Positions 1-53,334 of a DNA stretch of 64,000 nucleotides are shown piece after piece. Made by a program: the position numbers and the translations under genes. The notes under the pieces are model-generated. The model ran no database searches. It had not been told where the DNA came from and saw nothing but the letters and a program-made list of their open reading frames with translations. Position 1 is the first letter of the stretch. Every line of letters starts with the position of its first letter. Origin of the DNA: Plasmodiophora brassicae (lineage: Eukaryota); contig CP145417.1 in NCBI GenBank assembly GCA_036867785.1, forward strand, positions 992,001-1,056,000. Direction: 5' to 3'.

Positions 1-1227
1 GTCGTGATGCAATGCAGGCATTGCTGACACATCGCTTCAATGTCCTGATTGATCTTGGTCCAGAAGAAACGCTCCGTGATCATCTGCTTGGTTACTTCCG
101 ACGCACGATGACCAGCGCTTGCGCAATGGCCAATGACCAGGATTCGAAGGCGTAGACTCTTGCAGTCTTGATGACAAGGAATAAGAACGGCTTTGCTCTC
201 GTTCTTCCACAGACGATCAGCTTCATCGAAGTACACCCCGTCCTCGATCTTCTCCTCTCGTGACAGAAAGCGTTGCGAATCGCGGATCTCCTTTTCGGTC
301 GGCCAGCTGAATTCAGGATGTTGCCGAGGAGTGACTCGCAAATCGTCCATCTGCATGATGCGCGTTGCTCTACATGACAGTGCGATGCGACCAGCTCCCC
401 ATCGGGTCAGAAGGTCTGCCCATACGTTGTCGGTTCCAGCGATCTCCTTCATCTTGTAGCTGAAGCCTTGTAGATGCAATGCCCATCGCTCTAGCTTCTG
501 AGCCGTATGCTTCTTGATCTCCGAGTTCCGGTCGAAGATGAACGTCAGATTGCGATGATCGCAGTAGAGCAGGAACTCCCGGGATGTCTGCAGTAGGAAA
601 TCACCGCGCTGCGTAGCGTTGATGATCGCGGCTGCCTCCTTCTCGATCGTAGGCCATCTGATCTCTGCACCTGAGAAGCGCTTGCCGTAGAATGCGAGAG
701 GTTCATGTCGTTGTTCGCATACAGGCAGGTTGACGTCTTCCATCGGGATCTGCGTAACCACCGCCGACCATGCTGCATCACTGGCGTCCGTGAACAGGCA
801 GGTCTGATAATCCTCCTTCGGAAACGCCAGCTGAACGTGTTGAATCAAAGCGAAGCGCACGTCCTCGAATGACTTGCTGTGCTGATCGGACCAGCCCAGT
901 GCGTCCAGCGAGACACATGATGGCGATGATGATCGAATGCGCTTGAGCTCCTCCTTGGCAATGTCAAGCAGCTCTTGCAGCGGTCGTACTATACTTGTGT
1001 AGCCGGGTACGTGGGTACGCATCCAGTTGGCCGCCCACAGAAACTGCTGCAGGTCCTTAGCGGTCTTCTGTCACGATCAGGCAAGCTGATGCAACGAACG
1101 CTTTGACGGACTGGCGAAGTCCGTCGCGGGGTTCTCGGTTTATTCCGGACAGTCCTCACATAATAGTCCCCTTCTAGCGATGGGCCTCTGACGGGTCCGG
1201 GATAGAAGGGCAGACGGATGGCCTCTG

Positions 1228-1475
1228 ATGGGTCGCAGACGAACGGACAGGCGGATGAGCAGGCAGACGGGCGGGCAGACGGACGGACAGACGAACGGAC
1301 AGGCGGATGAGACGGGCGGGCAGACGGACGGACAGACGAACGATGAGCAGGCAGACGGGCGGGCAGACGGACGGACAGACGGACGAACGGGCAGACGGAC
1401 GGACAGACGGACGAACGGGCAGACGGACGGATTAGCAGACGGACGGAGAGACGGGCGGGCGGGCAGACGGACGAA
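1228..1475. repeat. Degenerate (GACG/GGAC/GCAG) low-complexity microsatellite inside element 1
   Basis: Runs such as gacggacggacagacgaacgg and gcagacgggcgggcagacgg; almost T-free on the + strand. Confidence 0.85.
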
Positions 1476-1504
1476 CAGGTTTGGTTAGTGACAGCACGTC
1501 GCAA

Positions 1505-3200
1505 CCGAGGCCTTGACGTTGTGCAGGAGATGCCGAGGCGGGATCGACACTGGCGGACGGACGGACGGGTAGAGACAGCAAGCGGTCAGGGAAACACCGG
1601 CGGCCTGGGAGGCAAACAGCACGGCGGGACACGCGCACTCTGGAACTTGGACCAGCTGCGACCGAGGCCTTGACGTTGTGCAGGAGATGCCGAGGCGGGA
1701 TCGGCACGGACGGACGGGAAGAGACAGCAAGTGGTCAGGGGAACACCGGTGGCCTGAGAGGCATACAGCACGGCGGGACACGTACTCTGGGACTTGGACC
1801 AGGTACGACCAAGGCCTTGACGTTCTGCGGGGGATGCCGAGGCGAGATCGGCACGGACGGACGGACGGGCGGGAAGAGACAGCAAGCGGTCAGGGGAACA
1901 CCGGTGGCCTGAGAGGCATACAGCACGGCGGGACACGCACTCTGGGACTTGGACCAGGTACGACCGAGGCCTTGACGTTCTGCGGGGGATGCCGAGGCGA
2001 GATCGGCACGGACGGACGGACGGGCGGGAAGAGACAGCAAGCGGTCAGGGGAACACCTGTGGCCTGAGAGGCATACAGCACGGCGGGACACGCACTCTGG
2101 GACTTGGACCAGGTACGACCGAGGCCTTGACGTTCTGCGGGGGATGCCGAGGCGAGATCGGCACGGACGGACGGGAAGAGACAGCAAGCGGTCAGGGGAA
2201 CACCGGTGGCCTGAGAGGCATACAGCACGGCGGGACACGCACTCTGGGACTTGGACCAGGTACGACCGAGGCCTTGACGTTCTGCGGGGGATGCCGAGGC
2301 GAGATCGGCACGGACGGACGGGAAGAGACAGCAAGCGGTCAGGGGAACACCGGTGGCCTGAGAGGCATACAGCACGGCGGGACACGCACTCTGGGACTTG
2401 GACCAGGTACGACCGAGGCCTTGACGTTCTGCGGGGGATGCCGAGGCGAGATCGGCACGGACGGACGGACGGGCGGGAAGAGACAGCAAGCGGTCAGGGG
2501 AACACCTGTGGCCTGAGAGGCATACAGCACGGCGGGACACGCACTCTGGGACTTGGACCAGGTACGACCGAGGCCTTGACGTTCTGCGGGGGATGCCGAG
2601 GCGAGATCGGCACGGACGGACGGGAAGAGACAGCAAGCGGTCAGGGGAACACCGGTGGCCTGAGAGGCATACAGCACGGCGGGACACGCACTCTGGGACT
2701 TGGACCAGGTACGACCGAGGCCTTGACGTTCTGCGGGGGATGCCGAGGCGAGATCGGCACGGACGGACGGGAAGAGACAGCAAGCGGTCAGGGGAACACC
2801 GGTGGCCTGAGAGGCATACAGCACGGCGGGACACGCACTCTGGGACTTGGACCAGGTACGACCGAGGCCTTGACGTTCTGCGGGGGATGCCGAGGCGAGA
2901 TCGGCACGGACGGACGGGAAGAGACAGCAAGCGGTCAGGGGAACACCGGTGGCCTGAGAGGCATACAGCACGGCGGGACACGCACTCTGGGACTTGGACC
3001 AGGTACGACCGAGGCCTTGACGTTCTGCGGGAGATGCCGAGGCGAGATCGGCACGGACGGACGGGAAGAGACAGCAAGCGGTCAGGGGAACACCGGTGGC
3101 CTGAGAGGCATACAGCACGGCGGGACACGTACTCTGGGACTTCGACCAGGTACCACCGAGGCCTTGACGTTCTGCAGGAGATGCCGAGGCGGGATCGACA
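1505..3200. repeat. Tandem array, 11 full units plus a partial unit of 147/155 bp
   Basis: Unit starts (ccgaggccttgacgtt) at 1505, 1662, 1809, 1964, 2119, 2266, 2413, 2568, 2715, 2862, 3009 and 3156. Length variation comes from an internal (GGAC)n tract. Central units are near-identical and edge units diverged. Confidence 0.95.
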
Positions 3201-5362
3201 GGAGGGTGGTGGGATAGGTAGTCCGTCAAAATGTCACGATCAGGCAAGCTGATGCAACGAACGCTTTGACGGACTGGCGAAGTCCGTCGCGGGGTTCTCG
3301 GTTTATTCCGGACAGTCCTCACATCTTCGGGCGTGGCATGCTGGTCAGCGCCTCGATGCGTTCTGGATCATGCCGAACTCCTTCTCGCGAGTATATCCTG
3401 CCGCACCACTTCAACTTGCGAGCGAACAACGTGCACTTGTTCGGGTTCAGCTTCAGGTTGCGCTCGCGACACCGCTCCAACACTCGTGTCAATTGATGAA
3501 GAAGGTCTTCCTCCGACCTCGCGAATCCGAGTATGTCGTCAATCCAGATGAGCAAATTCTCCTTCATGTCGTCGAAGATAGCAGCCATTCGGGCGTGGAA
3601 CTGAACCGCCGAATTCATTCCCCCTTGAATGCTCCTCGTAGGCGTGAATACAGCGTCGTCCGTCATGAGGCTGAAGATTTCCTGACACTCCTTAGCCAAA
3701 GGCATCAACCAGAAGCCCTTGAAAGCATCAATCGTGAAGAAACAAGTCATGCCGGAGAGCTTGCGCGTAACAGCCTCAACATTCGGCATCGGCCATGCTG
3801 TGGGAACACACCGTGCGTTCACTTGACGAAGATCGACACATAGACGATAGCCATCGCCTTTCGGTTTCTTGACGACTAGGACTGGACTTGCCCATCGCGA
3901 GTTCATGTTCATGTAGACAAGACCGTTCTCCTTCAGCATACTGATCATGTCGTCTAGGAACTCCTTCTGCTTAGGATTGTAGAACCGAGGCTTGCACCGG
4001 TACGGAGTAGCGTCCTGCTTGAGTTGTGTTACCATCGGTTCGACATCGACAGGCTTGTCTTGACCCAGGCGCGTGCGGAATTCGTTCAGATGTCGTCGCA
4101 AGATCAATCGTAGCTTAGCAACTCCTTGACGAGACATGCCATTGAGACGTGCTTGGTGTACCATCCGGTTACAAGAAGCTTCGATCTCGTGAGCATTGAT
4201 CGGTCCCAAGTCAACTTCACTTGACGACGGTTCCATAGAGTCCGACTCTGGTACTGGGTAGTGATCTCCTCGCAACGTTGCCATTCTCGCGGCAATTCGC
4301 CTCACGGTCTCGATACAATCGACATCGACTGCGGCACATCCTGAGAGCGTATCCATCTCGGTGCATCCTGACGCGATGATGTTCTCGAGTTGCTGACGCG
4401 GATTGATGCCGAGAGTCGTTATTTAGCAGATTGTCACCGAACAGGATCACAGGAATCTCGTCGCAAACGTAGTAGGTCACATGATACAGCGTCAAATTGC
4501 CAACTTCGGTCTCCAGGATCGTGATTGGAACTTGCACCGTGCGCGTTATGGTTCCGATAACTTTGCCTTCTGCTGAGGTGACGTCTCGTTGTTGAACGTC
4601 GCGGAACGTGGCCTCTTTCAACTGGACAGCGATATGGCCAGGCATGATGTTGCCTCCGCGGCAGCCGGAATCCAACTCGTACGGAACACGTATGCCTTCC
4701 AGCACTACGCGTTGTAGATCATCGACAGTCTCATTCGCGATTTTGGCCTCAATGTCTTGGGTCGTCAGGCCAAGACTCGCTGGAAGCTTCTTGATCTGCG
4801 ATTCGATCCTTCCTTCCAGGTCGTCATCTGTCAGCAGGTCGACATTGGTCAGGAACAGGTGATTCAACGCGATGCAGGTCAGCTGCGGCGTGGTAAAGCA
4901 GAATCGTATCGCTTGAGGCTTGATCCTCGCGGCTTCCGGACGGTTGCCCTCACGGTCGATCACCACTGCACAATATCGATCGTACTGCTCTTTCAACTTC
5001 AAGATGGATGTGGAGTCCAACTTCGCGACCCGTGGCAGGATGCTGACATCCTCGTCCTTGACACCCATATGCTCGTCCGTGCTGGACGTCGTCTCCGATG
5101 CCATGGCGCAGCGTCTCGACGTGGTGCGGGACGAAGTCAGACGTGTGGGATCAGACAGAGTGCGCACTGTAGTCAGTCTCGAGCCAATATCCCAATGAGC
5201 TTTATCATCCATCCCATCCACGGCGTCGGCCATGCCATCACAGTGGAGCTAAATCCGTGCAGGCCCCCTTTCCTCAGGACAGCAGGACCCCCTCCTCACT
5301 CCTCAGGACAGCAGCATCTTGAGGTCGGGCACGAGACGCTAAATATAGAGCCCCGCTCTACA

Positions 5363-8110
5363 AATCGCACCCTCCTGGCAATGGCTTTCGTCCTGCCAGG
5401 TTGGTCCTTCATTGCATCCTCGTATATCCTCTGTAACAGGTGTACCTTCCTGTTGTACTCAGGGATGGACCTACTCATCCACTGAGTTGCCATAAGGAAT
5501 TGTTGCAAGTCCCTTGCCGTCCTCGGCTGTGGTATCGCCATTAAAGCCTCAATCCTAGCAGGATCGTGCCTTACCCCTTCTGGCGTGAATATCCTTCCAC
5601 AGAACCGAACCTCTGTTGTGAAGAGCTCACACTTCTCCACGTTGAACTTGATGCTGTGCCGTTCGGCTAGCATCAGAGTCCGTTCCAACGTTCGGAACCA
5701 ATCATCCTCCCTTTGGGCATGCCCCATTAGATCATCGATCCATATGATTAGTTTGTGGAACATAAGTTCCCCGAACACCTCAAACATCCTCCCTTGATAC
5801 TGAGGGGCGGAGTTCATTCCCCCCTGCATCGACCTCGTTGGCTTATACACCCCCTTATCTGTCATGAAGGAGAAGATCTCCTGACACGCTTCATCCAGCG
5901 GCATCATCCAGAAGCCTTTGAACGCGTCTAGCTTAAACCAGAACCTCGAGCCTGCCAGGTTCCTCAGTATCGCCTCCTGATGTGGCATAGGCCACGCCAC
6001 GGCGACACATTTGGCATTAACAGCTCTGAGATCAACACAGAACCGCTTTCCGCCCCCTGGCTTCGTCACCACCACCACCGGTGAAGCCCACTTCGCGTTG
6101 TAGTTTTCAACGACTAGGCCATACTTCTTCAATTGGGCGACGAATTCCTCCATGAAAGCACTGTCCTCCATACTGTACTTTCTGGCTCGGCACCTGTAAG
6201 GTTCCGCATCCGGTTTCAGCTCCGTGACAAATGGTGTAACCCTGGCTGGACCATCAGGTCCAATGCTCATACGCCAAACGTCCCTATATCTTCTGACGAG
6301 TTTCCGAAGCGATTTCCCCATCGCTTGCGGTAGGCCATTCCTCAATGCGCGCTCGACCATCCCGTCCATCTCCCTTTCCAGGGAGTCTGTGGAATCGGTT
6401 CCGATCCTCACATCCTCTGTTTCCTCTTCCTCCCCTTCCCAGAGAGGTGGCATCTCGTTTGCCATATTGTGCACTTCATCCATGACGTCATTCCCCTTCT
6501 TCGGCGTGCTCTTAATGAGTACGTCCAGGGCCTTCTTTGGGTGGATACCCAAGTCGTCCAACAGCCTCTCCCCTAGGATTATTTCCTTTTCAGGAATGTC
6601 CCATACTAGGCATCGGCGCCGGCGAGTGATCAGTTCGCCTGCCGTCGTCGTCAGTCCCAGATCCAGTATCATCACATGGTAGGCTGTGTGCTTCGTTTCT
6701 CTGTCTACCAGACAGAACGTTTCCGGCTTCTGGAGGTTCTCCATTGTTAACAATGGGTCCCGCTCCATTAGCTCGCGCGCTATGGTCAATGGCATCAGAA
6801 CGTCAACCGATGTCGCTCCACTGTCCAGAACCCCAACGTAGTCTTCCTCATGTCCGTTTACACGAACGACTACTTGGTCCCCTGTCCTCTGCGCCCCCTC
6901 CGACACTCTTCCTACCACTGGAAGCCATGGGTACTCTGACAAGTCGTCATCTTTATCAGATTTGGCCTTACGGGGTCCATCCCTTCCCGTTGGCCCCTTG
7001 CGGCGATCCTTCAGCAGGTCTGCGACCTGCTTCTTGGTAGGCTTCTTCGGGCAACGAAACGCTGGATGTCCAACCTCGTCACAGTTGAAACATCGCAGGT
7101 CCTTCCGGTGTCGTTTCGTGTCCCGGCCTCCATCGCCTCCTTCATCCGTCTGCGCCCCTCGCTTCTTTGGGGTGGGTTTGACCTTTCCCTTCCCCTTGCC
7201 ATCCTCACGTCCCGGCTCCATGTACAACATCGTCTCCTCATACGATGCAGCCCGTTCCTTCAGCACCCGATAGAATTCCAAAGGGTCCTTCTGGAGATCG
7301 GTCTGGCGCTTCATGACGAGGGTCCGCATGAGCGCTTGTAAACCGGATGGGCGCACAGCACCCAGTAGGTACTTGACCAGGTTCTTCCGTCCCTCGCGGG
7401 ACGTGAAGAGGTCCTGCCACCCGTTGCGCGCGACCAATTCCTCGTACTGCTGCACGAGGTTCACGACCCTTGCCGCTGGTGTGGTGATGGTCAGCTTCAT
7501 CGCCAGCTTCCGCATCTCCCGGTCGATGTTCGCGTCCGTCGAGCGATCCTGCTCGAGATGCCTCTTCATCCAGTCCATCAGGTCGCTCTCCGTCACCCCC
7601 TCGGCGTCCGTGCCGAGTTCCCACTTGCAGATCGCCCTGAGCAGACCGGGGTCGATCATACTCCTCACTGACCGTGGGATCTGGCCCTTGGCATTCGGAT
7701 CGTCCCGGAAGTGATTCCGATACGTCTTCAGCTCGGCCATGAACGTCGTGACGGCCTTGCGGTCCATGCTCTTCAAGGTCGGCGCCTTGTTCATCTGCAG
7801 GACGATCGTTGAGCCTTGCACGCTCTGTCCTTGTTGTCGATCATCGACGTCATCTTCCAGCAGCATCTCCTGCGCGGTGGCCACCATCGCGTCCTTCTTT
7901 GAAACCTTCCCCGAAAGGATGTTCAAGAGATCTCTGTGACGTCCCAACGGTGATGGTATATCAGCCGTGTAGTATAATCGTCTGTGTCCCCGACCTGCAG
8001 CTCCCACGGACGCCGTGCGGACTCCGTGCGCACTCCGTGCATGTCCGTCATTCTTAGGGCGGCCTAGCCGGATCACAGCTATTCTTGTCTTATAGCTTGG
8101 AGCCGGCACA
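5363..8110 (-). mobile_element. Ty3/Gypsy family B copy 1 (5' LTR 7935-8110, gag-PR-RT), interrupted at 5362 by Gypsy A
   Basis: Near-identical reverse complement of 23460-about 26187. 176-bp LTR. CCHC knuckle CFNCDEVGHPAFRC, LDSGA protease, RT. Identity ends at KAIARRVR. Confidence 0.95.
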
Positions 8111-22638: not shown

Positions 22639-23459
22639 GTACCTTTGCACGTGGACCCGTCGAGCGCCAACGAGAATGCCCAGACCGATTCACCGGACAG
22701 GATTGTCAAAATGTTCTGAAAACCGACAGCGCACGTGACCCGAACGTGGCGGGCGACGTTCTCCTCAGAAAACGAGCCGAGCTGGGTGCAAGCCGTGACG
22801 TCAACGGTGGCAGACCCAGCTCGAGACGCCATCCGAAAAGTCATTCCCGTGTCGATGAACTTCAGCGTCAGCTGGTACTGCTTGACCGGATGGACCAGGA
22901 CAACGTACTTCTGAAGTGCCTCGTCGAACGTGAATGGAGACATAGCCCGTGTATGGGTCGCGCTGCCAATTGCGCCAGGACGCCAAAGCAATCTCCCGAT
23001 GAGGATATCGACGATTTCCGGGTCGAAATGGAACCGTAATTCGCTGGACTGTCTCGGCATGAACGACGTGATCAAGCCGGCTGGCGACTGGTGACGGAAG
23101 AAGTTTCTCTTCTCATCCAACGATGGCAAGTTTTGGTACCGCTGCCACAGAGTGGCGTGTTGACTGTTCAGATGCTGGATATACTTGTGTGGGCGGAAGT
23201 CATTCTCGACCTTGTACGTGGTGGTAGTCGGTCGCTGTCCATGACGCCCGAACGTAACGCAGAACATGCACTTGGCCTGAGTGACCACACCACGCGACCC
23301 ATGAGCAGATGGCTTCATGCCGTACTGCACTTCATGATCGGACTGGAATGGAGTTCCTCCATCCCTCATCCGTTTGCTCGGGCGGCGGGTGTCATCGGAA
23401 AGACTATCGTCACCTGACGACATGGTTTGAGGGTGCCAACTGCAGACTGTAGAGGGTTC

Positions 23460-26400
23460 TGTGCCGGCTCCAAGCTATAAGACAAGAATAGCTGTGATCC
23501 GGCTAGGCCGCCCTAAGAATGACGGACATGCACGGCGTCCGTGGGAGCTGCAGGTCGGGGACACAGACGAATATACTACACGGCGGATATACCATCACCG
23601 TTGGGACGTCACAGAGATCTCTTGAACATCCTTTCGGGGAAGGTTTCAAAGAAGGACGCGATGGTGGCCACCGCGCAGGAGATGCTGCTGGAAGATGACG
23701 TCGATGATCGACAACAAGGACAGAGCGTGCAAGGCTCAACGATCGTCCTGCAGATGAACAAGGCGCCGACCTTGAAAAGCATGGACCGCAAGGCCGTCAC
23801 GACGTTCATGGCCGAGCTGAAGACGTATCGGAATCACTTCCGGGACGATCCGAACGCCAAGGGCCAGATCCCGCGGTCAGTGAGGAGTATGATCGACCCC
23901 GGTCTGCTCAGGGCGATCTGCAAGTGGGAACTCGGCAAGGACGCCGAGGGGGTGACGGAGAGCGACCTGATGGACTGGATGAAGAGGCATCTGGAGCAGG
24001 ATCGCTCGACGGACGCGAACATCGACCGGGAGATGCGGAAGCTGGCGATGAAGCTGACCATCACCACACCAGCGGCAAGGGTCGTGAACCTCGTGCAGCA
24101 GTACGAGGAATTGGTCGCGCGCAACGGGTGGCAGGACCTCTTCACGTCCCGCGAGGGACGGAAGAACCTGGTCAAGTACCTACTGGGTGCTGTGCGCCCA
24201 TCCGGTTTACAAGCGCTCATGCGGACCCTCGTCATGAAGCGCCAGACCGATCTCCAGAAGGACCCTTTGGAATTCTATCGGGTGCTGAAGGAACGGGCTG
24301 CATCGTATGAGGAGACGATGTTGTACATGGAGCCGGGACGTGAGGATGGCAAGGGGAAGGGAAAGGTCAAACCCACCCCGAAGAAGCGAGGGGCGCAGAC
24401 GGATGAAGGAGGCGATGGAGGCCGGGACACGAAACGACACCGGAAGGACCTGCGATGTTTCAACTGTGACGAGGTTGGACATCCAGCGTTTCGTTGCCCG
24501 AAGAAGCCTACCAAGAAGCAGGTCGCAGACCTGCTGAAGGATCGCCGCAAGGGGCCAACGGGAAGGGATGGACCCCGTAAGGCCAAATCTGATAAAGATG
24601 ACGACTTGTCAGAGTACCCATGGCTTCCAGTGGTAGGAAGAGTGTCGGAGGGGGCGCAGAGGACAGGGGACCAAGTAGTCGTTCGTGTAAACGGACATGA
24701 GGAAGACTACGTTGGGGTTCTGGACAGTGGAGCGACATCGGTTGACGTTCTGATGCCATTGACCATAGCGCGCGAGCTAATGGAGCGGGACCCATTGTTA
24801 ACAATGGAGAACCTCCAGAAGCCGGAAACGTTCTGTCTGGTAGACAGAGAAACGAAGCACACAGCCTACCATGTGATGATACTGGATCTGGGACTGACGA
24901 CGACGGCAGGCGAACTGATCACTCGCCGGCGCCGATGCCTTGTATGGGACATTCCTGAAAAGGAAATAATCCTAGGGGAGAGGCTGTTGGACGACTTGGG
25001 TATCCACCCAAAGAAGGCCCTGGACGTACTCATTAAGAGCACGCCGAAGAAGGGGAATGACGTCATGGATGAAGTGCACAATATGGCAAACGAGATGCCA
25101 CCTCTCTGGGAAGGGGAGGAAGAGGAAACAGAGGATGTGAGGATCGGAACCGATTCCACAGACTCCCTGGAAAGGGAGATGGACGGGATGGTCGAGCGCG
25201 CATTGAGGAATGGCCTACCGCAAGCGATGGGGAAATCGCTTCGGAAACTCGTCAGAAGATATAGGGACGTTTGGCGTATGAGCATTGGACCTGATGGTCC
25301 AGCCAGGGTTACACCATTTGTCACGGAGCTGAAACCGGATGCGGAACCTTACAGGTGCCGAGCCAGAAAGTACAGTATGGAGGACAGTGCTTTCATGGAG
25401 GAATTCGTCGCCCAATTGAAGAAGTATGGCCTAGTCGTTGAAAACTACAACGCGAAGTGGGCTTCACCGGTGGTGGTGGTGACGAAGCCAGGGGGCGGAA
25501 AGCGGTTCTGTGTTGATCTCAGAGCTGTTAATGCCAAATGTGTCGCCGTGGCGTGGCCTATGCCACATCAGGAGGCGATACTCAGGAACCTGGCAGGCTC
25601 GAGGTTCTGGTTTAAGCTAGACGCGTTCAAAGGCTTCTGGATGATGCCGCTGGATGAAGCGTGTCAGGAGATCTTCTCCTTCATGACAGATAAGGGGGTG
25701 TATAAGCCAACGAGGTCGATGCAGGGGGGAATGAACTCCGCCCCTCAGTATCAAGGGAGGATGTTTGAGGTGTTCGGGGAACTTATGTTCCACAAACTAA
25801 TCATATGGATCGATGATCTAATGGGGCATGCCCAAAGGGAGGATGATTGGTTCCGAACGTTGGAACGGACTCTGATGCTAGCCGAACGGCACAGCATCAA
25901 GTTCAACGTGGAGAAGTGTGAGCTCTTCACAACAGAGGTTCGGTTCTGTGGAAGGATATTCACGCCAGAAGGGGTAAGGCACGATCCTGCTAGGATTGAG
26001 GCTTTAATGGCGATACCACAGCCGAGGACGGCAAGGGACTTGCAACAATTCCTTATGGCAACTCAGTGGATGAGTAGGTCCATCCCTGAGTACAACAGGA
26101 AGGTACACCTGTTACAGAGGATATACGAGGATGCCATGAAGGACCAACCTGGCAGGACGAAAGCCATTGCCAGGAGGGTGCGATTGTGCAAATATGGATG
26201 GTCACCCGAACATGCGCTGGCATTCGAGAAACTGAAGATGGCAGTGGCGGACACGGTCCAACTAGCGTACCCGCGAAAGGACCGGATCCAATGCCTATTC
26301 TCAGATGCAAATGAGGTTAACAGCGCGGCGGTAGTCACACAGATTCCGCCTGAGGACTTGGGTAAACCAGTGCATGGGCAGCGACATGAACCGCTGGGTT

Positions 26401-28702
26401 TCGTCGGACACAAGTTCGCGGGCCCAGAGCGGAACTGGTCCACGGTGGAGAAGGAAGGGTTCGCGATCAAGGATGGGATTGACAAACTGGACTATCTCGT
26501 TACAACCAACGAGCAGTTTCGTTTGTTTACCGATCATAGGAATCTCGTGAGGATATTCTCACCAACGGACGTGTCAAAGCCAACGGCGCAGAAACTGCAA
26601 CGATGGGCACTGGACATACAGAGGGTCAACTACGTCATTGAACACATTGCGGGGGAGGACAATGTGTGGTCGGATCTTATGACGCGGTGGGGTGCACCGG
26701 ACGGTGGGCCTGATGACCAGCACCTAGAGGTACGCACGATCAGGAGGATAACGCTTCAAATTGAGGACGGATATCGGGTACGGCCGTTACAAAGGAAGGA
26801 ATTCCAATGGCCGACCGTGGACGAAATCCGTAAGGCTCAGAGGAAATGGCTCAGAGGAACGAAACGACCGAAGAATGGTGATGATCTCTTCGTCACAGGG
26901 AAGGGACAGGTGATCATACCAGACGAATGCAACGAGCTGAAGCTGCAGCTATGCGCTATTGCTCATGCGGGCGGAAACAGTGGGCATCTAGGACTGAAGG
27001 CCTCGTTGAGGAAGTTGGGGGAGTTCTGCCATTGGGCACACTGCGATGAGGACATGAGGACGTTCTGCAACGCGTGTTTGAACTGTCTACCGACAAGGGG
27101 CGGGGTTAGGATTCCCAGGCCATTGGGAACAGCTGTTCATGGTGTTAGGCCGAATCAGGTGATTCACTTGGATTGGCTATACATGATGGCGGCTCAGAAG
27201 GGCGGAAGACATGATCTGCAATGGAACCTGATAATCAGGGATGATCTGTCTGGCATGGTCAAGATTACTCCTGACCATACACCCAATGCGGAAACCACTG
27301 TAGAGGCACTGCTCGAATGGAGGGCTATCTTCGGAACGTTTGAGTTGATGGTGTCAGACATGGCGTCTTGCTTTCTGGCAAACGTTGTGAAGGAACTGGC
27401 GCGTCGATGTGGATTTGCTCATCACCCGACTGTTGCCTATGGGCATTACAGTAATGGATCAATTGAGGTGATCAACAGGAACTACTTGCAACTAGTCAGA
27501 GCACTTCTGTCTGAATTGCAGTGGGACAAATACGATTGGCCATGGTTGAACCACAACATTGAACACACGATCAATCACAGGTCGCAGGCGCGTACCAACG
27601 GGAATGCGCCAGTGACAGTGATGATGGGACGTCAACCAGACAACCCGCTGAAGCAAGTGTTCAAGAGGCCAGGGGATGAGAAGTATGGGGAAGCTACACT
27701 CTCAAAGGAGCATATTCAGGAGCTAGTCATGCAATTGCAGACGTCGCTGAATGAAATGCACAAGGGAGCAGTGCAGCAATCGAAGAAAATCCGAGCCGTA
27801 CACAGGAAGAGGAGCGACGCGTACCGACGAGCAACTGCACCGAACTTTCAGATCGGTGACTATGTACTCATCGGATTGCCTGAACCGGGTAAGGTTCCGG
27901 GCAAGAAGCTCTTTATGAAGTGGCGGGGCCTATATCAAATAACTGATAGCCACGAGAACTACACCTACGAGGTGAGGAATATGTTCAATGAGACGGACAC
28001 TCGAACCGTTCACGGGGACCGCGTTCGCCTCTATGAACATGGCAAAGTGAATGCCACTGAGGAACTGAAGCGACAGATGGATTATGACAATGAGCGTTTC
28101 GCCATTGAAGTCTTCAAGGACTGCAGGCACAGTCCGGAGACAGGGGAATTGGAATTGTTGATCGGATGGAAGGGTTTCTCTGAAGCGGAGGATTCATGGG
28201 AGCCAATCTGCAGGTTGGCGATGGATGTACCGAAGCTGGTGAAGGCACATGCCGCCAGGATGAGGAAGGAGAAACATCACCTTGCTGATGAGGTTAAGGA
28301 GTTACTTAAGGCGGAAGGAGTCCAGTAGGCTAGTCATGCTTTTTTCCCGGATGCGCGCTGGGTTATTTTAATGCCGACGGCCATGTGACGACAGAAGCCA
28401 AAACTGTGTTCTACGAAGATTGAGACTTAATTATGTTAATTAGACTATATTAAGGAGAAGACATGATTAGGATACACCACCACTGAAGACACCTGCAAGG
28501 AGGAGCATTTCGTTGAAGGAGGGGAATGTGCCGGCTCCAAGCTATAAGACAAGAATAGCTGTGATCCGGCTAGGCCGCCCTAAGAATGACGGACATGCAC
28601 GGAGTGCGCACGGAGTCCGCACGGCGTCCGTGGGAGCTGCAGGTCGGGGACACAGACGAATATACTACACGGCGGATATACCATCACCGTTGGGACGTCA
28701 CA
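23460..28702 (+). mobile_element. Full-length Ty3/Gypsy chromovirus family B copy 2
   Basis: 5' LTR 23460-23613 (154 bp) and 3' LTR 28527-28702 (176 bp), TG...CA. 4-bp TSD GTTC. PPT GAAGGAGGGGAA. Confidence 0.97.
23661..28328 (+). CDS. Intact single-ORF gag-pol polyprotein (CCHC, protease, RT, RNase H, integrase, chromodomain)
   Basis: CFNCDEVGHPAFRC; LDSGA; LDAFKGF/WIDD; FSDAN..EKE..TDHRNL; H-H-C-C zinc motif and HLDW..VSD..SIE; IGWKGFSEAEDSWEP. First ATG after the LTR is 23661. Confidence 0.95.
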   Translation: MVATAQEMLLEDDVDDRQQGQSVQGSTIVLQMNKAPTLKSMDRKAVTTFMAELKTYRNHFRDDPNAKGQIPRSVRSMIDPGLLRAICKWELGKDAEGVTESDLMDWMKRHLEQDRSTDANIDREMRKLAMKLTITTPAARVVNLVQQYEELVARNGWQDLFTSREGRKNLVKYLLGAVRPSGLQALMRTLVMKRQTDLQKDPLEFYRVLKERAASYEETMLYMEPGREDGKGKGKVKPTPKKRGAQTDEGGDGGRDTKRHRKDLRCFNCDEVGHPAFRCPKKPTKKQVADLLKDRRKGPTGRDGPRKAKSDKDDDLSEYPWLPVVGRVSEGAQRTGDQVVVRVNGHEEDYVGVLDSGATSVDVLMPLTIARELMERDPLLTMENLQKPETFCLVDRETKHTAYHVMILDLGLTTTAGELITRRRRCLVWDIPEKEIILGERLLDDLGIHPKKALDVLIKSTPKKGNDVMDEVHNMANEMPPLWEGEEEETEDVRIGTDSTDSLEREMDGMVERALRNGLPQAMGKSLRKLVRRYRDVWRMSIGPDGPARVTPFVTELKPDAEPYRCRARKYSMEDSAFMEEFVAQLKKYGLVVENYNAKWASPVVVVTKPGGGKRFCVDLRAVNAKCVAVAWPMPHQEAILRNLAGSRFWFKLDAFKGFWMMPLDEACQEIFSFMTDKGVYKPTRSMQGGMNSAPQYQGRMFEVFGELMFHKLIIWIDDLMGHAQREDDWFRTLERTLMLAERHSIKFNVEKCELFTTEVRFCGRIFTPEGVRHDPARIEALMAIPQPRTARDLQQFLMATQWMSRSIPEYNRKVHLLQRIYEDAMKDQPGRTKAIARRVRLCKYGWSPEHALAFEKLKMAVADTVQLAYPRKDRIQCLFSDANEVNSAAVVTQIPPEDLGKPVHGQRHEPLGFVGHKFAGPERNWSTVEKEGFAIKDGIDKLDYLVTTNEQFRLFTDHRNLVRIFSPTDVSKPTAQKLQRWALDIQRVNYVIEHIAGEDNVWSDLMTRWGAPDGGPDDQHLEVRTIRRITLQIEDGYRVRPLQRKEFQWPTVDEIRKAQRKWLRGTKRPKNGDDLFVTGKGQVIIPDECNELKLQLCAIAHAGGNSGHLGLKASLRKLGEFCHWAHCDEDMRTFCNACLNCLPTRGGVRIPRPLGTAVHGVRPNQVIHLDWLYMMAAQKGGRHDLQWNLIIRDDLSGMVKITPDHTPNAETTVEALLEWRAIFGTFELMVSDMASCFLANVVKELARRCGFAHHPTVAYGHYSNGSIEVINRNYLQLVRALLSELQWDKYDWPWLNHNIEHTINHRSQARTNGNAPVTVMMGRQPDNPLKQVFKRPGDEKYGEATLSKEHIQELVMQLQTSLNEMHKGAVQQSKKIRAVHRKRSDAYRRATAPNFQIGDYVLIGLPEPGKVPGKKLFMKWRGLYQITDSHENYTYEVRNMFNETDTRTVHGDRVRLYEHGKVNATEELKRQMDYDNERFAIEVFKDCRHSPETGELELLIGWKGFSEAEDSWEPICRLAMDVPKLVKAHAARMRKEKHHLADEVKELLKAEGVQ

Positions 28703-29624
28703 GTTCCCACAGCCGTACGGAGCCCGTGGAACGGCGGAATGGCATCCCCGAACGCCTCCCTGGTTCCTAGAGCACGCTTGGGTCGCCTGAACTGGATTCG
28801 GCGAAATATGTCACCACATCACCAAATATGCATGAGATTCGGGTGCTATTTTTAGGAAATCGCATATCTCAAGAGGCCTGTAATAATCGCCAAAGGAACG
28901 TTTTGGCTCCATTGATGTGCGTAAGGTACCAGCGGGTAGCCACCATGCCTCGGCACTGAACAATATTGGGGGCGCAGTGTATTACAGGCACCGTTTGATG
29001 CCATATTGTCAGGCAACCTATGTGGTGGGAGCACTATCCTGTTAGCGTTATATTTTGCCAGGGCATCATCATCTCATGAACGATGCACGAACATACGCGT
29101 CATGGAAGAGGACTGGCAAACGGATGCAATTTGCGGGTTCCATTCTTCCGATCGACTCGGTTATACTTCATCTCGTTGCTGGGCACCTCTACAATGACGG
29201 CACAGGTGGATGTGGAATCGTTGGAAGAGCTGGCCATTGTCTAGGGAACCTGCTGAAGAATGGGTCCACTGAGCCGAACAACGGCGTCCAGGGGCAGGCC
29301 CATTTGGAGAAAGACGACGTCGTCGTGGGCGGCACAAAGGGCTTGTTCGACCTCGTGACGCAGAATGAAATCCAGGAAGTTGCCACAGCAAGCGGCGATC
29401 ATAGAGCCCCTGGAAGCTGAACGCTGCCTTCAGGACCGCGGACGATCGCAGACGACCTAGCACATAGGGCCAGATCGAAACAAGAGTCCATTGGCCGCAC
29501 AGACGGTAGATCTATCGTCGTCGGCATCGTTAAGAGCAATGCCGCGGCACCAGGTTGACCATGTTCGATATTATTATACCCCCCGATCCTTCGGTGCTCC
29601 GACGTCGACAGTTTCGTGCATGTA

Positions 29625-48081: not shown

Positions 48082-48428
48082 GGTCGACAGCTATGTTTGG
48101 GATTCGAGAACCAACGGCACCAAACGCCCGGACGGATTCAGCTTTGGGCGCGAGTCACAGGAGAGATCACAGCTCAGCTGGCAGACGACCTCCCCAATCG
48201 CACTGCAGTCGCCGTCTCTGGGACTACGTGCCCATCCTGTGCTGCAGAGACGACTCTGCTTCCCCCCAATCACCCGGTCCACCAATTGCCACACCGGTCA
48301 TACAGACCCTGGTGGATCTGCATAGCGAACCGCACGGTGAAACGTCGAGTCCACGCGAGGCCCGTAACGAACCGCGGTATGCGACGCTGGACCGTTACAC
48401 GGGTTGCTCAACAGGGCATTTGGCGTCA

Positions 48429-51400
48429 TGATCCCCCAGACGACGTCGCCGTCGCCGGCAACGATGCTGGCGTGCGCCATGCTGGCCGTGACGGCGATCG
48501 TGCTGGTCCGCGCGGCGCGGCCGCATCGTCGACGGCGTCGCCGCGTGCCACTGGCAGGGGGAGGTGCAGTTCCCAGTGGCGCGAAGAAGTGCGTGGTCAG
48601 AATGATGGCGGCTGCCGATTCGCGGCAGCAGCTGGTGACGCGGGCGCCGCCGCCGGGGCCGCTACCCGTCGAGATCCGGTCGGCGCTGCCGGATGTCGCA
48701 CGCGACGTCGTCCTGTACAGCGAGGACGGCGACCTGCGCGCCTGGGTCCTGCGCCTGATTGCGCCGCCCGCCGCCGAGGATGCCGCCGCGTTCGTCGACG
48801 GGTTGCGACAGGCGAACACGTCGAGCGTCTGCGCGTATTCGTTCAAGGCTGGCGAGCCGGCGTATCAGTGCGGCACGTGCGGTGTTGACCCGACGTGTAT
48901 CCAGTGCGCGGCGTGCTTTACCGCCGCTGATCACACCGGGCACGACATCAAGATGACGCATGCCGGCGGCGGTGGCATGTGCGATTGCGGTGATGAGAGC
49001 TCGTGGGCTCCTGCTGGGTTCTGTCGTAATCATCGTGGACGTTCCGCCACGGTCGACGTTCCCAGCTGCAGCCTTCCAGAGCACACATCCACCGTCATTT
49101 CGGAATTCGTGAGGCTGGCAGCGTTATCACTGCTCCATACCGATGGACACTTCGCTGTCGATGACAGCATTCCGACGTACGATGGGGGATACGTCGGCGT
49201 CCTGTTCAACGACGACGTCCATTCGTTCGATTCAGTGGTGAGCCACCTGCAGCATGTTACCGGGTTGACGCGACGCGGCGCCACGACGACCGCGCTGGTC
49301 GTGGACCTGTTCGGGCAGAGCGTCTTCTTTCGCGGGTCAATGCAACAGTGCCAGGATGCGGTTGATTCCATCACGGAGCGTGTCGGCGTTGATGCGTCCG
49401 TGCAGAACCTGCCGGCGTTTCTGATCAAGGAATCCCGGTTGATTCGTCTGCTGGATATACTCACCGACCTGTGCTCCTGCTCCGACCTCTTGCGCGATGC
49501 CGTCGGGCGCTCGTTGACGACAACCACTACGTCGACGTTAGGAGATGGCCACGCGATCCCGCTGGTGTCCGCCATCATGCGCGTCTCGGCGATCCTGCAA
49601 CGCGAGCTGTCGCAGGCGGTTGGCCGCCTGCACTTTCAGCTGTTCGTGGACGCGGAGTTCAAGGAGTACTTCACGATGGTCTTCACCCGGGACTATTCGC
49701 GCCTTCTCACGAGCGCCCGGCACGCGCGGCACTCGCGCACCCGGTCTGTGCTGGACTACTCGGTCCAGCTGTACACGATTCCCGATATGGTCTTGCGCTT
49801 GTGCCGGGAGCAGGACCTGCTCTCTGTTTTCTTGTCGAACTTTCGCAATTGGTTCTTGGACCATCTGGAAGAGTCGAATCTGGATGCGCGCCCGTTCAGT
49901 GATTTGCAGTACATCCTGAGGAACCATGGCGTTCTTGAGTTTGTCATTTCCGAACGTGTCGATCTTCTGCAGTCGTGGCTCGATATTCTTCGCGTCGCCG
50001 AAGGCATCGATTCTCAAAGGCGTGAATGCGGACCGAATCATGTCGAATACGAGAGCCTCGCTTGGTACGGCGCCTTCGCTATTACTGCGAGCCTGTTCCT
50101 AGTGACGCGCGTTCTACGAGATGACATCATGCCGCTGTGGGCAAAGGAGCATCTCGATACCGTGATTCGCCCTCTGGTGTCGCGGTTCATGTCCGACTGG
50201 TCATCGCAGCCTCGAGAGGACCGTGTTGATCTCGGCAACGGGTTCTCTGCTGCCCGGTGCGACATCGTTAACGGCGGCCCCGTGTCGCTGCACTTTCCCC
50301 TACGACGCTTTCTTATGGAACTTGTTGGGACGTTCTGCGTCCAGACCGGCACGTCGCTGTCCGAATGTTTACCTGGGCCGGATGATGCTGTTGCTTTGGT
50401 AGACGAACTTATTCGTGCGTGTGCCTTCACGTGTCACGCTCGTGCCTCTCTCTGGGTCCGCAACGGTAACTTCATTATCCAGCAAGCAGTTGCGTATTCG
50501 CGTTCGGGAACCTTCCGTTCTGCCATGTTTGCCGGCGATCTATTCGGCATGCAATGCGCTGCTGTGCGCCTTGGCGCGGCGCCCTTTCTTTCCTTAATGT
50601 CGTATCGGTTTGCGATTCATGATGTTCTCGAGATTGGGACGGGCAATCTGCCATCATTTGCTGTCATTCGAGAATCGTGGGACCCGGAGAAGGTCAACTA
50701 CACTGTTGAGGCATTCGTGGAAGTCTTTATTACAGTGTTGACCGATCGGGGGCATCTCCGTCACCAACACGATCACGAGCTTTGGTCGCTTCGTCGCAAC
50801 GTCGTCCACTGTTTGCTGCTGGGTGAAGCGACGTACAGTGAGGTCCTTCAGTTCTTTGGCGTCGAGCAGCCTCCTGAATACCTGGACGACATGCTGGACG
50901 AAGTCGCTGTCTACATTGTCCCTCGTGACATGGAATCCGGCAAGTACCGCGTGCGCGATTCGGCAGCGCTTGAGCATTTCGATCCCTTCTTCGCCCACTA
51001 TTCGGACGTGCAGAAGCAGCAAGCGCAGGACAATTTCTCGAAGTTGATGTCCAGTCGGGGTCACGACATCGGGTCTCGGCGGATTCCCCCGTTGCCCGTA
51101 GTGGCGCCCCCGTTTCTCCCCCTGTTGGATATCGTGGTATCTTGCGACGTTGTCGCTCTGGTTCGAAAGCTCCTGACCATGAATCCTGGTCCCCGCCTGT
51201 TGTCCTCTGCGCTATACTTGGTGTCGTTGGCGATCAACGACATTACCCATAACGGGGTTGCGTCAGATGCTTGGGCGGCCGCCATTGTCCAATCTGGTGA
51301 CGATCACAGCGTCCTTCGTACTCTGTGCCAGATTGTTGTGCTAAGTGTATGCGTTTGCCTCGAGTCGTGTGGGTCTGGGACTCTGATTGACCTGCACAGG

Positions 51401-53334
51401 AGACTCATAATGAAGCGTCGAACGGCCTTCTTGCCGTTAAAGCGGAAAGGCATCATGTCGACGAAGTTCGGTTGATATTGAAGGATCTGAGGGAGCTGAG
51501 TGAAGACTGCCGCGCTGTCATCGACTCGTACCAATTCCGGCCAACGGTAAATGACTGAAACCTGATCGTTGATCTGCGCGCCTGTAGTGAATTTGGATGT
51601 GTGTTTGCAGCCGCCGAAAGAGTCGCACGCGCAGGCCGCCGAACGCACGGCGCGTCGGGATGCCGCGCGCGCACGCGCGCTTGCTCGTATCCAGCATCAG
51701 AGCGAAACGTTCTCAAACACCCACCGCGAACACCTCGTTGTCGTTGACGAAGCCGCGCAACAGCAGCGCTCCCACCTGCACTCGTGCATCTGTCAGTCTG
51801 CACGCCATCTGCCGTGTGGCACGTTCGCTGACCGCGTTCCATTCAGTGTGTCGCTCGAACCATTCGCAGGAGGAGATGGGCCTTCTTGCCTGGATTGGAC
51901 GGTGCGAGATCCGCAGTCTCCTGGAAGCGCCTGAACGGCGCTGTCGTAAGCGTCCCCGAGTTCCGCGCCCGAGCGATCGTTTCGTTCGGTATTCACGCGA
52001 CTGCGGGCATGCCATGCATAGTTCCTGCTACGCCAGCTATGTCTCCAGCCTGCTGGGTAGGAAATCGTCCCGACAGCACTACGAAGGGGAGTTCGTGGTC
52101 AATGTGCGTCGTTGGATTGTCGGTATGGATGCGGGGGGCGCTGACGTTTTCCCAGATCTCCGTTGGCGAAATTACGTGCCCGCTCTGCAAATGCCACGCG
52201 AACGTCCTGCTGCCGATTGATCCGCCGACATCGGAAGTGTCAGCGGAATTTGACGACGTTCGTGATGACGGCGGCACCAGCGATGAACAGTGGTTTGAGA
52301 CGTACAGTTCCGCGCTTCTGTCGAGGCTGTCCGACAAGGCCGGTCGGCTTACGCCCGCACCACTGTTATCGCCTGGCTCTGAGGCGCTCTACATCCAGTT
52401 GAACGACCGCTTCCGGTCGTTCTCGAACGACGACAACGCCGTCGTCCGCCTTGTCGCATCGGATATCGGGATCGCCGAGATCCAGTGGCGCGCGCGAACC
52501 TACGCTCCCGATAAGGACCTGGACCACATCCGCCTCCTGATTCGCAGTGCCAGCGTGGTCGTGCGCCGCCAGCTGTTTGCTGGCACGCTGTCCCTGACCC
52601 CGTTCGAAATCGACGCTAAGCAGTGCACCACCATCGACTGCATCGCTCGATATGCTATTCTGCTCCTGGCTATCGGCCTCACGAACGAGCAAGCGCTCTG
52701 CGTTATCCGACGACTGATTCGTGTCGGTTGTCGTACTGCGCCTTCATTAGCGTTCGCGCGGCAAGCGTCCATCCTCTGCTGTACCATGCCTGGCAACGCC
52801 ATTCTATTGCCCGCTTCGGACGACGAGCTGGCCGACGTCCTCGGCGTGGCTGTGCCGTTGGAAACGGCGCTAACCGTGCCGTATCTGTCGCCATTGCCGA
52901 CCGAGTTCCTGGAGTTGTTCAACAAGCACGCCTTCTCGGTTTGCGTCGAGTGTGGGAAGAGGCCGAAGACGGCAGCGCTGTGCCTGGTCTGTGGCGATCT
53001 GCTGTGTGCCGGCAGGGACTGCTCCGTTCCAAGTCTGGGCGGTGGTGCGCTCTCCGTTCACACCTCTCTGTACTGTGGAGAGCAAGCCGCATTCCTACTC
53101 TTATCGCAGTGCTCCGTCGTCCTCATCGCGAACGGGTATTCGTGCGACTTCATCTCGCCGTACCTGGACGCGCACGGCGAAGAAGACGTCGGCCTGCAAC
53201 GAGGCCGGCCGCTGTTCCTGGACGCTGACCGGTGGCAGCGAATCCAACAGCTGGTGACGAACCTGGAGATCGGGTCGTTCGTGTCCAGGAAGCGGTCGTA
53301 TCAGCACGACCTCTTCCCCAGGAACCATTTCTGA
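48429..53334 (+). CDS. UBR-box N-recognin E3 ligase (UBR1/PRT6-like), multi-exon
   Basis: UBR box (CGTCGVDPTCIQC..CDCGD), ClpS-like LFNDDVHSF, WVRNG, CGHAMH/CPLC RING pieces, C-terminal SPYLDAHGEEDVGLQRGRPL. Start codon uncertain. Confidence 0.92.

Follow-up and report, generated by a model that had tools for sequence, protein, structure and literature searches.

A covarying palindrome at the 5′ LTR junction of Ty3/Gypsy elements from Plasmodiophora brassicae and their relatives: a possible self-complementary primer-binding site

RESULTS

LTR Elements of the Window

The stretch of Plasmodiophora brassicae DNA analyzed here (64,000 nucleotides; “the window,” to which all coordinates refer) has a G+C content of 62%, and no tRNA genes were found in it. 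Two families of LTR retrotransposon, designated A and B, are present, the latter as two copies (B1 and B2), together with a smaller element designated T. The features relevant to the analysis are as follows.

1069-3323, element T, a small non-coding element with LTRs, inserted within family A
3-5167, minus strand, family A internal region (leader, gag, RT, RNase H and start of integrase)
5159-5168, minus strand, family A palindrome AGTGCGCACT, its first base being the last base of the 5′ LTR
5168-5362, minus strand, family A 5′ LTR (195 bp, TGTAG...CTACA)
7926-7935, minus strand, family B palindrome AGAGATCTCT, copy B2
7935-8110, minus strand, family B copy B2 5′ LTR (176 bp)
23460-23613, plus strand, family B copy B1 5′ LTR (154 bp; a 22-bp stretch of the other two LTR copies is absent)
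23613-23622, plus strand, family B palindrome AGAGATCTCT, copy B1
23661-28328, plus strand, family B gag-pol ORF of copy B1, counted from the first ATG (23661)
28515-28526, plus strand, family B polypurine tract GAAGGAGGGGAA, immediately 5′ of the 3′ LTR
28527-28702, plus strand, family B copy B1 3′ LTR (176 bp)

Copy B1 is a Ty3/Gypsy element of 5,243 bp on the plus strand (23460-28702), with the 4-bp target duplication GTTC on either side (23456-23459 and 28703-28706). The gag-pol product of family B contains a CCHC knuckle, RT with a WIDD motif, RNase H, integrase and a weak chromodomain. The match to the last of these (PF00385, E 0.00099) scored 19.4 bits, under the 25.1-bit cut-off, and a precomputed PF00385 match is present in many relatives. 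The order of Pfam domains (RVT_1, RT_RNaseH, Integrase_H2C2) is that of Ty3/Gypsy elements (Metaviridae), and the best PDB matches were to the Ty3 polyprotein and Ty3 RT. The LTRs are likewise of Ty3/Gypsy form, with TGTG...CACA ends and the GTTC duplication in B1 and TGTAG...CTACA ends in family A. Copy B2 runs on the minus strand from 8110 down to 5363, with 98.8% identity, and is there cut by the family A insertion. Family A itself, whose gag ATG lies at 5104 on the minus strand, is interrupted by element T and runs past the start of the window; its pol shares 40-43% protein identity with that of family B.

Comparison of the B1 5′ LTR with its own 3′ LTR places the missing 22 bp at 23504 (the stretch is present at 28571-28592 and, in the B2 LTR, at 8045-8066). 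The insertion point of B1 lies 12 nt past a TGTAGAGGG... motif (23448-23459) similar to the first bases of the family A LTR, and the host site may be a remnant of another LTR; no element was recognized in the region downstream of B1 (from 28703). Elsewhere in the window, host genes at 48404-53334 encode a UBR-box N-recognin-type E3 ligase with UBR, ClpS-like, winged-helix and PRT6_C domains.

Palindromes at the LTR Ends of Families A and B

A preliminary description of this DNA had reported perfect 10-bp palindromes at the inner end of the 5′ LTR in both families, despite LTRs that looked unrelated. All three palindromes are present at the positions listed above, with the final A of the 5′ LTR serving as the first base of the palindrome in both families. 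The lack of relationship between the two LTRs was also borne out, with no match better than 9 nt (E 0.096).

The LTR ends of family B are fixed by the B1 LTR pair, by the GTTC duplication and by LTR-sized contigs, namely separate 176-nt contigs in public runs X1 and X15 that correspond exactly to 7935-8110. The 3′ LTR of family A lies outside the window, and the two boundaries of its 5′ LTR were placed by contigs and by the interruption of B2. The outer edge of the family A LTR is the point at which B2 homology stops (5363), and several public-run contigs diverge at 5362. The inner boundary, which the preliminary description had regarded as open to revision, withstood comparison with a 1018-nt contig (X4, record 28) that matches only 5168-5362. 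The contig represents an independent copy of the family A LTR, its match ending at both proposed boundaries. The family A palindrome is unaltered in a diverged copy spanning 5159-5168 (X15, record 12). An opposite-strand joint between 7899 and 8025 in run X1, of low depth, was disregarded; the palindrome does not lie at its center.

Perfect 10-bp palindromes number 93 in the 64,000 positions of the window, close to the 90.5 ± 9 expected under a Markov-1 model, so that the window is not palindrome-rich in general. The per-position chance of a palindrome is ∼1.5 × 10−3 (about 1 per 688 positions), and the chance of palindromes at identical offsets in two unrelated LTRs is ∼2 × 10−6.

Palindromes in Related Families

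Relatives were sought with an alignment of the family B polyprotein and 29 database relatives as the query. This search yielded 54 loci, of which 48 were on metagenome contigs, 1 was on a viral contig (L049, a distant relative) and 5 were on MAG contigs, the last evidently being eukaryotic contamination. No leader was available for 27 of the 54 loci, which were on short contigs within pol or on contigs that started in the ORF or ended within the LTR. Absence of the leader was judged by match coordinates and was checked directly for L004, L016, L018, L031, L033, L036, L041, L045, L048, L051 and L053. Locus L037, in which a 10-bp palindrome lies close to the 3′ end, was excluded from the counts both ways.

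A perfect palindrome of 10-14 bp was found in all 25 leader-bearing loci, 6-47 nt 5′ of the gag ATG, and the presence of the palindrome in related families, whose absence would have counted against the preliminary description, was thereby upheld. In most of these loci the palindrome directly follows ...CTACA, ...CACA or ...AACA. By comparison, 274 palindromes of at least 10 bp occur elsewhere in the loci (205,261 nt), which corresponds to a per-family chance of 0.089 for a 70-nt window. When near-identical leaders were merged by eye (L002/3/7/8/23, L006/11, L030/32 and L038/39), the 25 loci reduced to 18 families with 25-62% amino acid identity to family B, or 20 families with A and B included. 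A normal TGG site, straight after ...CA, is present in L049, an outgroup with 22% identity.

The LTR ends of the metagenome families were mostly placed by their CA. Direct repeats in the metagenome contigs are mostly terminal overlaps of circular permutations or internal duplications (L003, L030), and usable LTR pairs were obtained for L038 and L046 only. In these two the repeat extends 2-3 nt into the palindrome, and thus the LTR end of the relatives is known to within ∼3 nt.

Single-LTR circular permutations or two-copy chimeric joins were found to be common among the metagenome contigs of these elements (L003, L007 and L030, with terminal overlaps in L001, L010, L011, L026, L029, L032 and L039). 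Repeats within such contigs are therefore not to be taken for LTR pairs.

Conservation of Structure without Conservation of Sequence

Inspection of the 20 families revealed ∼10 distinct palindrome cores, among them AAAGAATTCTTT, AAAGATATCTTT, AAAGTTAACTTT, AAAGTAATTACTTT and AATAACGTTATT, as well as ATTGATCAAT, AAAGCGCTTT, CAGTGATCACTG and TAGTGATCACTA. Many cores have a common outer A-A-A-G...C-T-T-T frame. Counted from the center, each of pair positions 1-4 is occupied by three Watson-Crick pair types across the 20 families, and pair position 5 is A-T throughout. Because the pair table was drawn from detected palindromes, its 100% pairing is so by construction, and the evidence lies in the variety of sequence at a fixed place. 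A double change at the outermost pair distinguishes L022 from L047.

The base preceding the palindrome is C in 13 of the 20 families. Where the palindrome begins relative to the CA/TA end is not constant, being at −1 in L001, L002, L019, L022 and L047, at +1 in L046 and at +2 in L035. The proposal that structure is conserved where sequence is not, made originally from families A and B, is thus strongly supported by 20 families and ∼10 cores, all located at the junction of LTR and leader. The palindrome is almost certainly a selected structural feature.

The preliminary description had further associated the palindrome with Gypsy families of the WIDD type. The catalytic Y-x-DD motif of RT (25803-25814 in family B) is W-I-DD, W-L-DD or W-V-DD in most of the clade, and to that extent the association holds. 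However, families with Y-x-DD (L030/L032, L038/L039) or C-I-DD (L052) also carry the palindrome, so W-x-DD does not strictly track it.

Search for Known Types of Priming Site

In tRNA-primed elements a TGG... sequence complementary to a tRNA 3′ end lies 0-5 nt past the 5′ LTR. No TGG was present in any of the 20 families within −2 to +11 of the palindrome start, in agreement with the earlier reading that families A and B lack a tRNA site.

The earlier impression that there is no clear LTR complementarity was also confirmed. A complement of the site of at least 9 nt within 400 nt upstream was found in none of the 16 families tested, the longest being 8 nt. In families A and B, an exact complement of at least 6 nt was absent at offsets 0-7. 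With no LTR complement of the site, Tf1-type self-priming was rejected for these two families.

A second arm downstream of the palindrome, with which it might form a hairpin of the kind described for fungal GalEa elements, was sought in all 20 families. In none was the best downstream match better than in shuffled sequences (the fraction of shuffles that did as well was 0.20 at its lowest), and a GalEa-like hairpin arm was rejected.

Folds of the 20 families revealed no common flanking stem and no common display of the palindrome in a loop. The arrangement, with no separate primer site and no consistent loop, differs from that of a retroviral-type dimer initiation site. In predicted dimers the palindrome was paired in most of the 20 families, with PbA, L001, L002, L030 and L052 as exceptions, in a notation that does not distinguish pairs between two molecules from pairs within one. 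The predicted dimer exceeded two monomers in stability by 7.9-16 kcal/mol in every one of the 20 families, which would be expected of any palindrome and is weak evidence.

A Different Type of Site in Element T

Element T has LTRs of 92 bp each (1069-1160 and 3232-3323), a target duplication, TCTTC, at 1064-1068 and 3324-3328, and an internal tandem array of 147 bp. It is present at very high depth in the run contigs, and its unoccupied insertion site is also represented by contigs. When the minus strand is read, the 11 nt that begin one base past the LTR (3221-3231) are exactly complementary to 3265-3275 within the LTR (also 1102-1112); the first base of an AATAAA motif precedes the start of this LTR stretch by 32 nt. 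The chance of such an 11-nt complement was estimated as about 1 × 10−4. Judged by its sequence, this complement is a classic signature of Tf1-type self-priming, and one genome seems to contain the ordinary self-priming type (T) as well as the palindrome type (A and B).

DISCUSSION

The observations to be accounted for are the palindrome, its position at the LTR end, its covariation in 20 families and the lack of both a tRNA-type site and any LTR complement. The generally recognized primer types are only three, namely the tRNA 3′ end, a half-tRNA and the Tf1-type 5′-end self-primer (PMC6317226). Neither the canonical tRNA site nor an LTR complement of the Tf1 type is present, so the palindrome families are most naturally read as primed in some non-canonical way, and the palindrome probably stands in for the tRNA site in priming. 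The interpretation offered in the preliminary description, non-canonical priming or dimer initiation, is partly supported.

Given that U5 ends where primer extension begins, the primer must anneal at the palindrome. Furthermore, because the palindromes differ between families, even between two families in one host, the only complement is the palindrome itself, on the other or the same RNA. The reading that we favor, with a probability of roughly 0.45, is that the palindrome serves as a self-complementary primer-binding site for which the element's own RNA would be the primer.

The priming role, the RNA-RNA pairing, the cut and the enzyme that makes it are what we infer, and they can be pictured as follows. 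The site on one genomic RNA would pair with its counterpart on a second packaged RNA, giving a duplex of 10-14 bp; alternatively, and less stably, the site might fold back on its own RNA. Cleavage at or close to the 3′ edge of the paired region, for which by analogy with Tf1 the RNase H of the element would be responsible, would leave a 3′-OH base-paired beside the end of U5. Extension of this 3′-OH by RT through U5 and R would then give minus-strand strong-stop DNA, and the same pairing would hold both RNAs together as a dimer. For Tf1, Levin in 1996 and Haag in 2000 reportedly found that an RNA duplex is cut by RNase H and that a primer can act in trans.

Several difficulties would attend such a mechanism. 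The variable start of the palindrome relative to the CA/TA end, and the placing of most LTR ends of the metagenome families by their CA, count against it. The cut would require an activity so far only assumed for these enzymes, and the primer would keep a long 5′ tail (R-U5), into which plus-strand strong-stop synthesis could continue. On account of this tail, the model would need a second trimming step or reciprocal priming, both of which are speculative; in the latter case, RNase H is conjectured to trim both tails in the dimer. It is possible, and we put it forward tentatively, that packaged RNAs which pair site to site, each priming the other after a cut, constitute a fourth priming mode of LTR retroelements.

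The self-primer of Tf1 is 11 nt long, a pairing length similar to the 10-14 nt here. Tf1 and Tj1 (Tf1/sushi group), like the present elements, are Gypsy elements that lack a tRNA site; they carry a chromodomain (PMC4600332, PMC6317226), for which the match in family B is weak. The primer of Tf1 is described there as a 5′ segment of the mRNA that pairs with a site beside U5 (PMC4600332), and an own-RNA primer is what is proposed here. The difference is that the Tf1 site is described as pairing with the mRNA 5′ end, within the LTR, whereas the sole complement of the site here is itself.

The nearest parallel is offered by the “Conserved Hairpin Site” of GalEa, a group of fungal Copia elements, and the palindrome type is therefore not wholly new. 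According to the 2017 report, GalEa elements are without a tRNA-type primer site and without a Tf1-type complement (PMC5445492). They have a conserved 9-bp sequence after the 5′ LTR that, together with the final A of the LTR, makes a 10-bp palindrome. The palindromes of the present elements lie at the same offset, the final A of the LTR included. In GalEa, another conserved 9-bp element, situated 12-41 bp further downstream, is described as pairing with the first to form a hairpin, and largely two core sequences account for 85% of its families (same source). In contrast, the elements here are Gypsy rather than Copia, a second arm above the level of shuffles was found in 0 of 20 families, and ∼10 cores of 10-14 bp are represented. 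The GalEa authors state that no known priming model fits (PMC5445492), a view echoed in a report on bivalve TRIMs (PMC6934838). In the open-access literature searched, no account of such a palindrome in Gypsy elements was found.

An alternative to self-complementary priming is that the palindrome is a dimer-linkage or packaging signal only, in the manner of a retroviral dimer initiation site, and that something unrecognized primes reverse transcription. Palindromes in the 5′ leader mediate dimerization in retroviruses and Ty1, according to three sources (PMC6844567, PMC8096270, PMC7357161), and the HIV DIS, the Ty1 PAL and the palindrome of the MMTV primer site are, as described, likewise short self-complementary sequences within the 5′ leader, able to link two genomic RNAs. 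The leaders are very short, with 6-47 nt from palindrome to ATG, and signals may be closely packed in them. We nevertheless regard an exclusive role in dimerization as unlikely, because the primer must anneal beside the LTR end, and that slot is filled by the palindrome. Other candidate sites were not found (a TGG in 0 of 20 families and an LTR complement in 0 of 16). The retroviral and Ty1 palindromes are described as coexisting with a separate tRNA primer site, whereas here the palindrome takes its place; retroviral dimer sites in particular are described as lying in a hairpin loop, with a separate primer site in addition (PMC5445492), and the folds obtained here are without a consistent hairpin that displays the palindrome in its loop.

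Less likely still is a role at the level of DNA, either as a U5-end target for integrase or a host factor acting as a dimer or as an aid to plus-strand transfer, with priming by some other route. The inner positions of the palindrome vary but stay complementary, which fits pairing of nucleic acids and not recognition of one sequence by a protein, and the palindrome is internal to the integrated element rather than at a DNA end. These points outweigh, in our judgment, the fact that short perfect palindromes are typical of sites for dimeric DNA-binding proteins and that the outer frame is common to many cores.

That the primer is a host RNA, either an internal tRNA fragment (half-tRNA priming) or another complementary small RNA, is improbable, even though half-tRNA priming is known in some Copia lineages (PMC6317226). 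The different palindromes of families A and B in one host mean that a single host RNA cannot serve both, and a set of RNAs to match ∼10 cores overall, all of them perfectly self-complementary, is unlikely. The stems of tRNAs have intervening loops and therefore offer no loop-less palindromes of 10-14 nt, which also counts against a host-RNA primer. Coincidence, in the sense of two chance palindromes beside LTRs, might be suggested by the frequency of 10-bp palindromes in the window but is effectively refuted by the joint same-offset chance of ∼2 × 10−6 and by the 25 of 25 positive relatives against 0.089 expected per 70-nt window.

The start of reverse transcription is a defining trait of retroelement lineages, and here 20 diverged Gypsy families carry a covarying palindrome instead of a primer site. 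Taken with GalEa, this indicates that many elements recorded by annotation pipelines as having “no PBS” may share a distinct and testable mode of priming. LTR-annotation tools that require a tRNA match will under-call or misjudge such families in Plasmodiophora and in other protist genomes. If self-complementary priming is true, dimerization of the genome and the start of reverse transcription would be one interaction, and with one site both dimerizing the genome and priming cDNA, packaging would be tied simply to replication. The same solution would then have arisen in a Gypsy clade of Rhizaria and other protists and in the fungal GalEa Copia elements.
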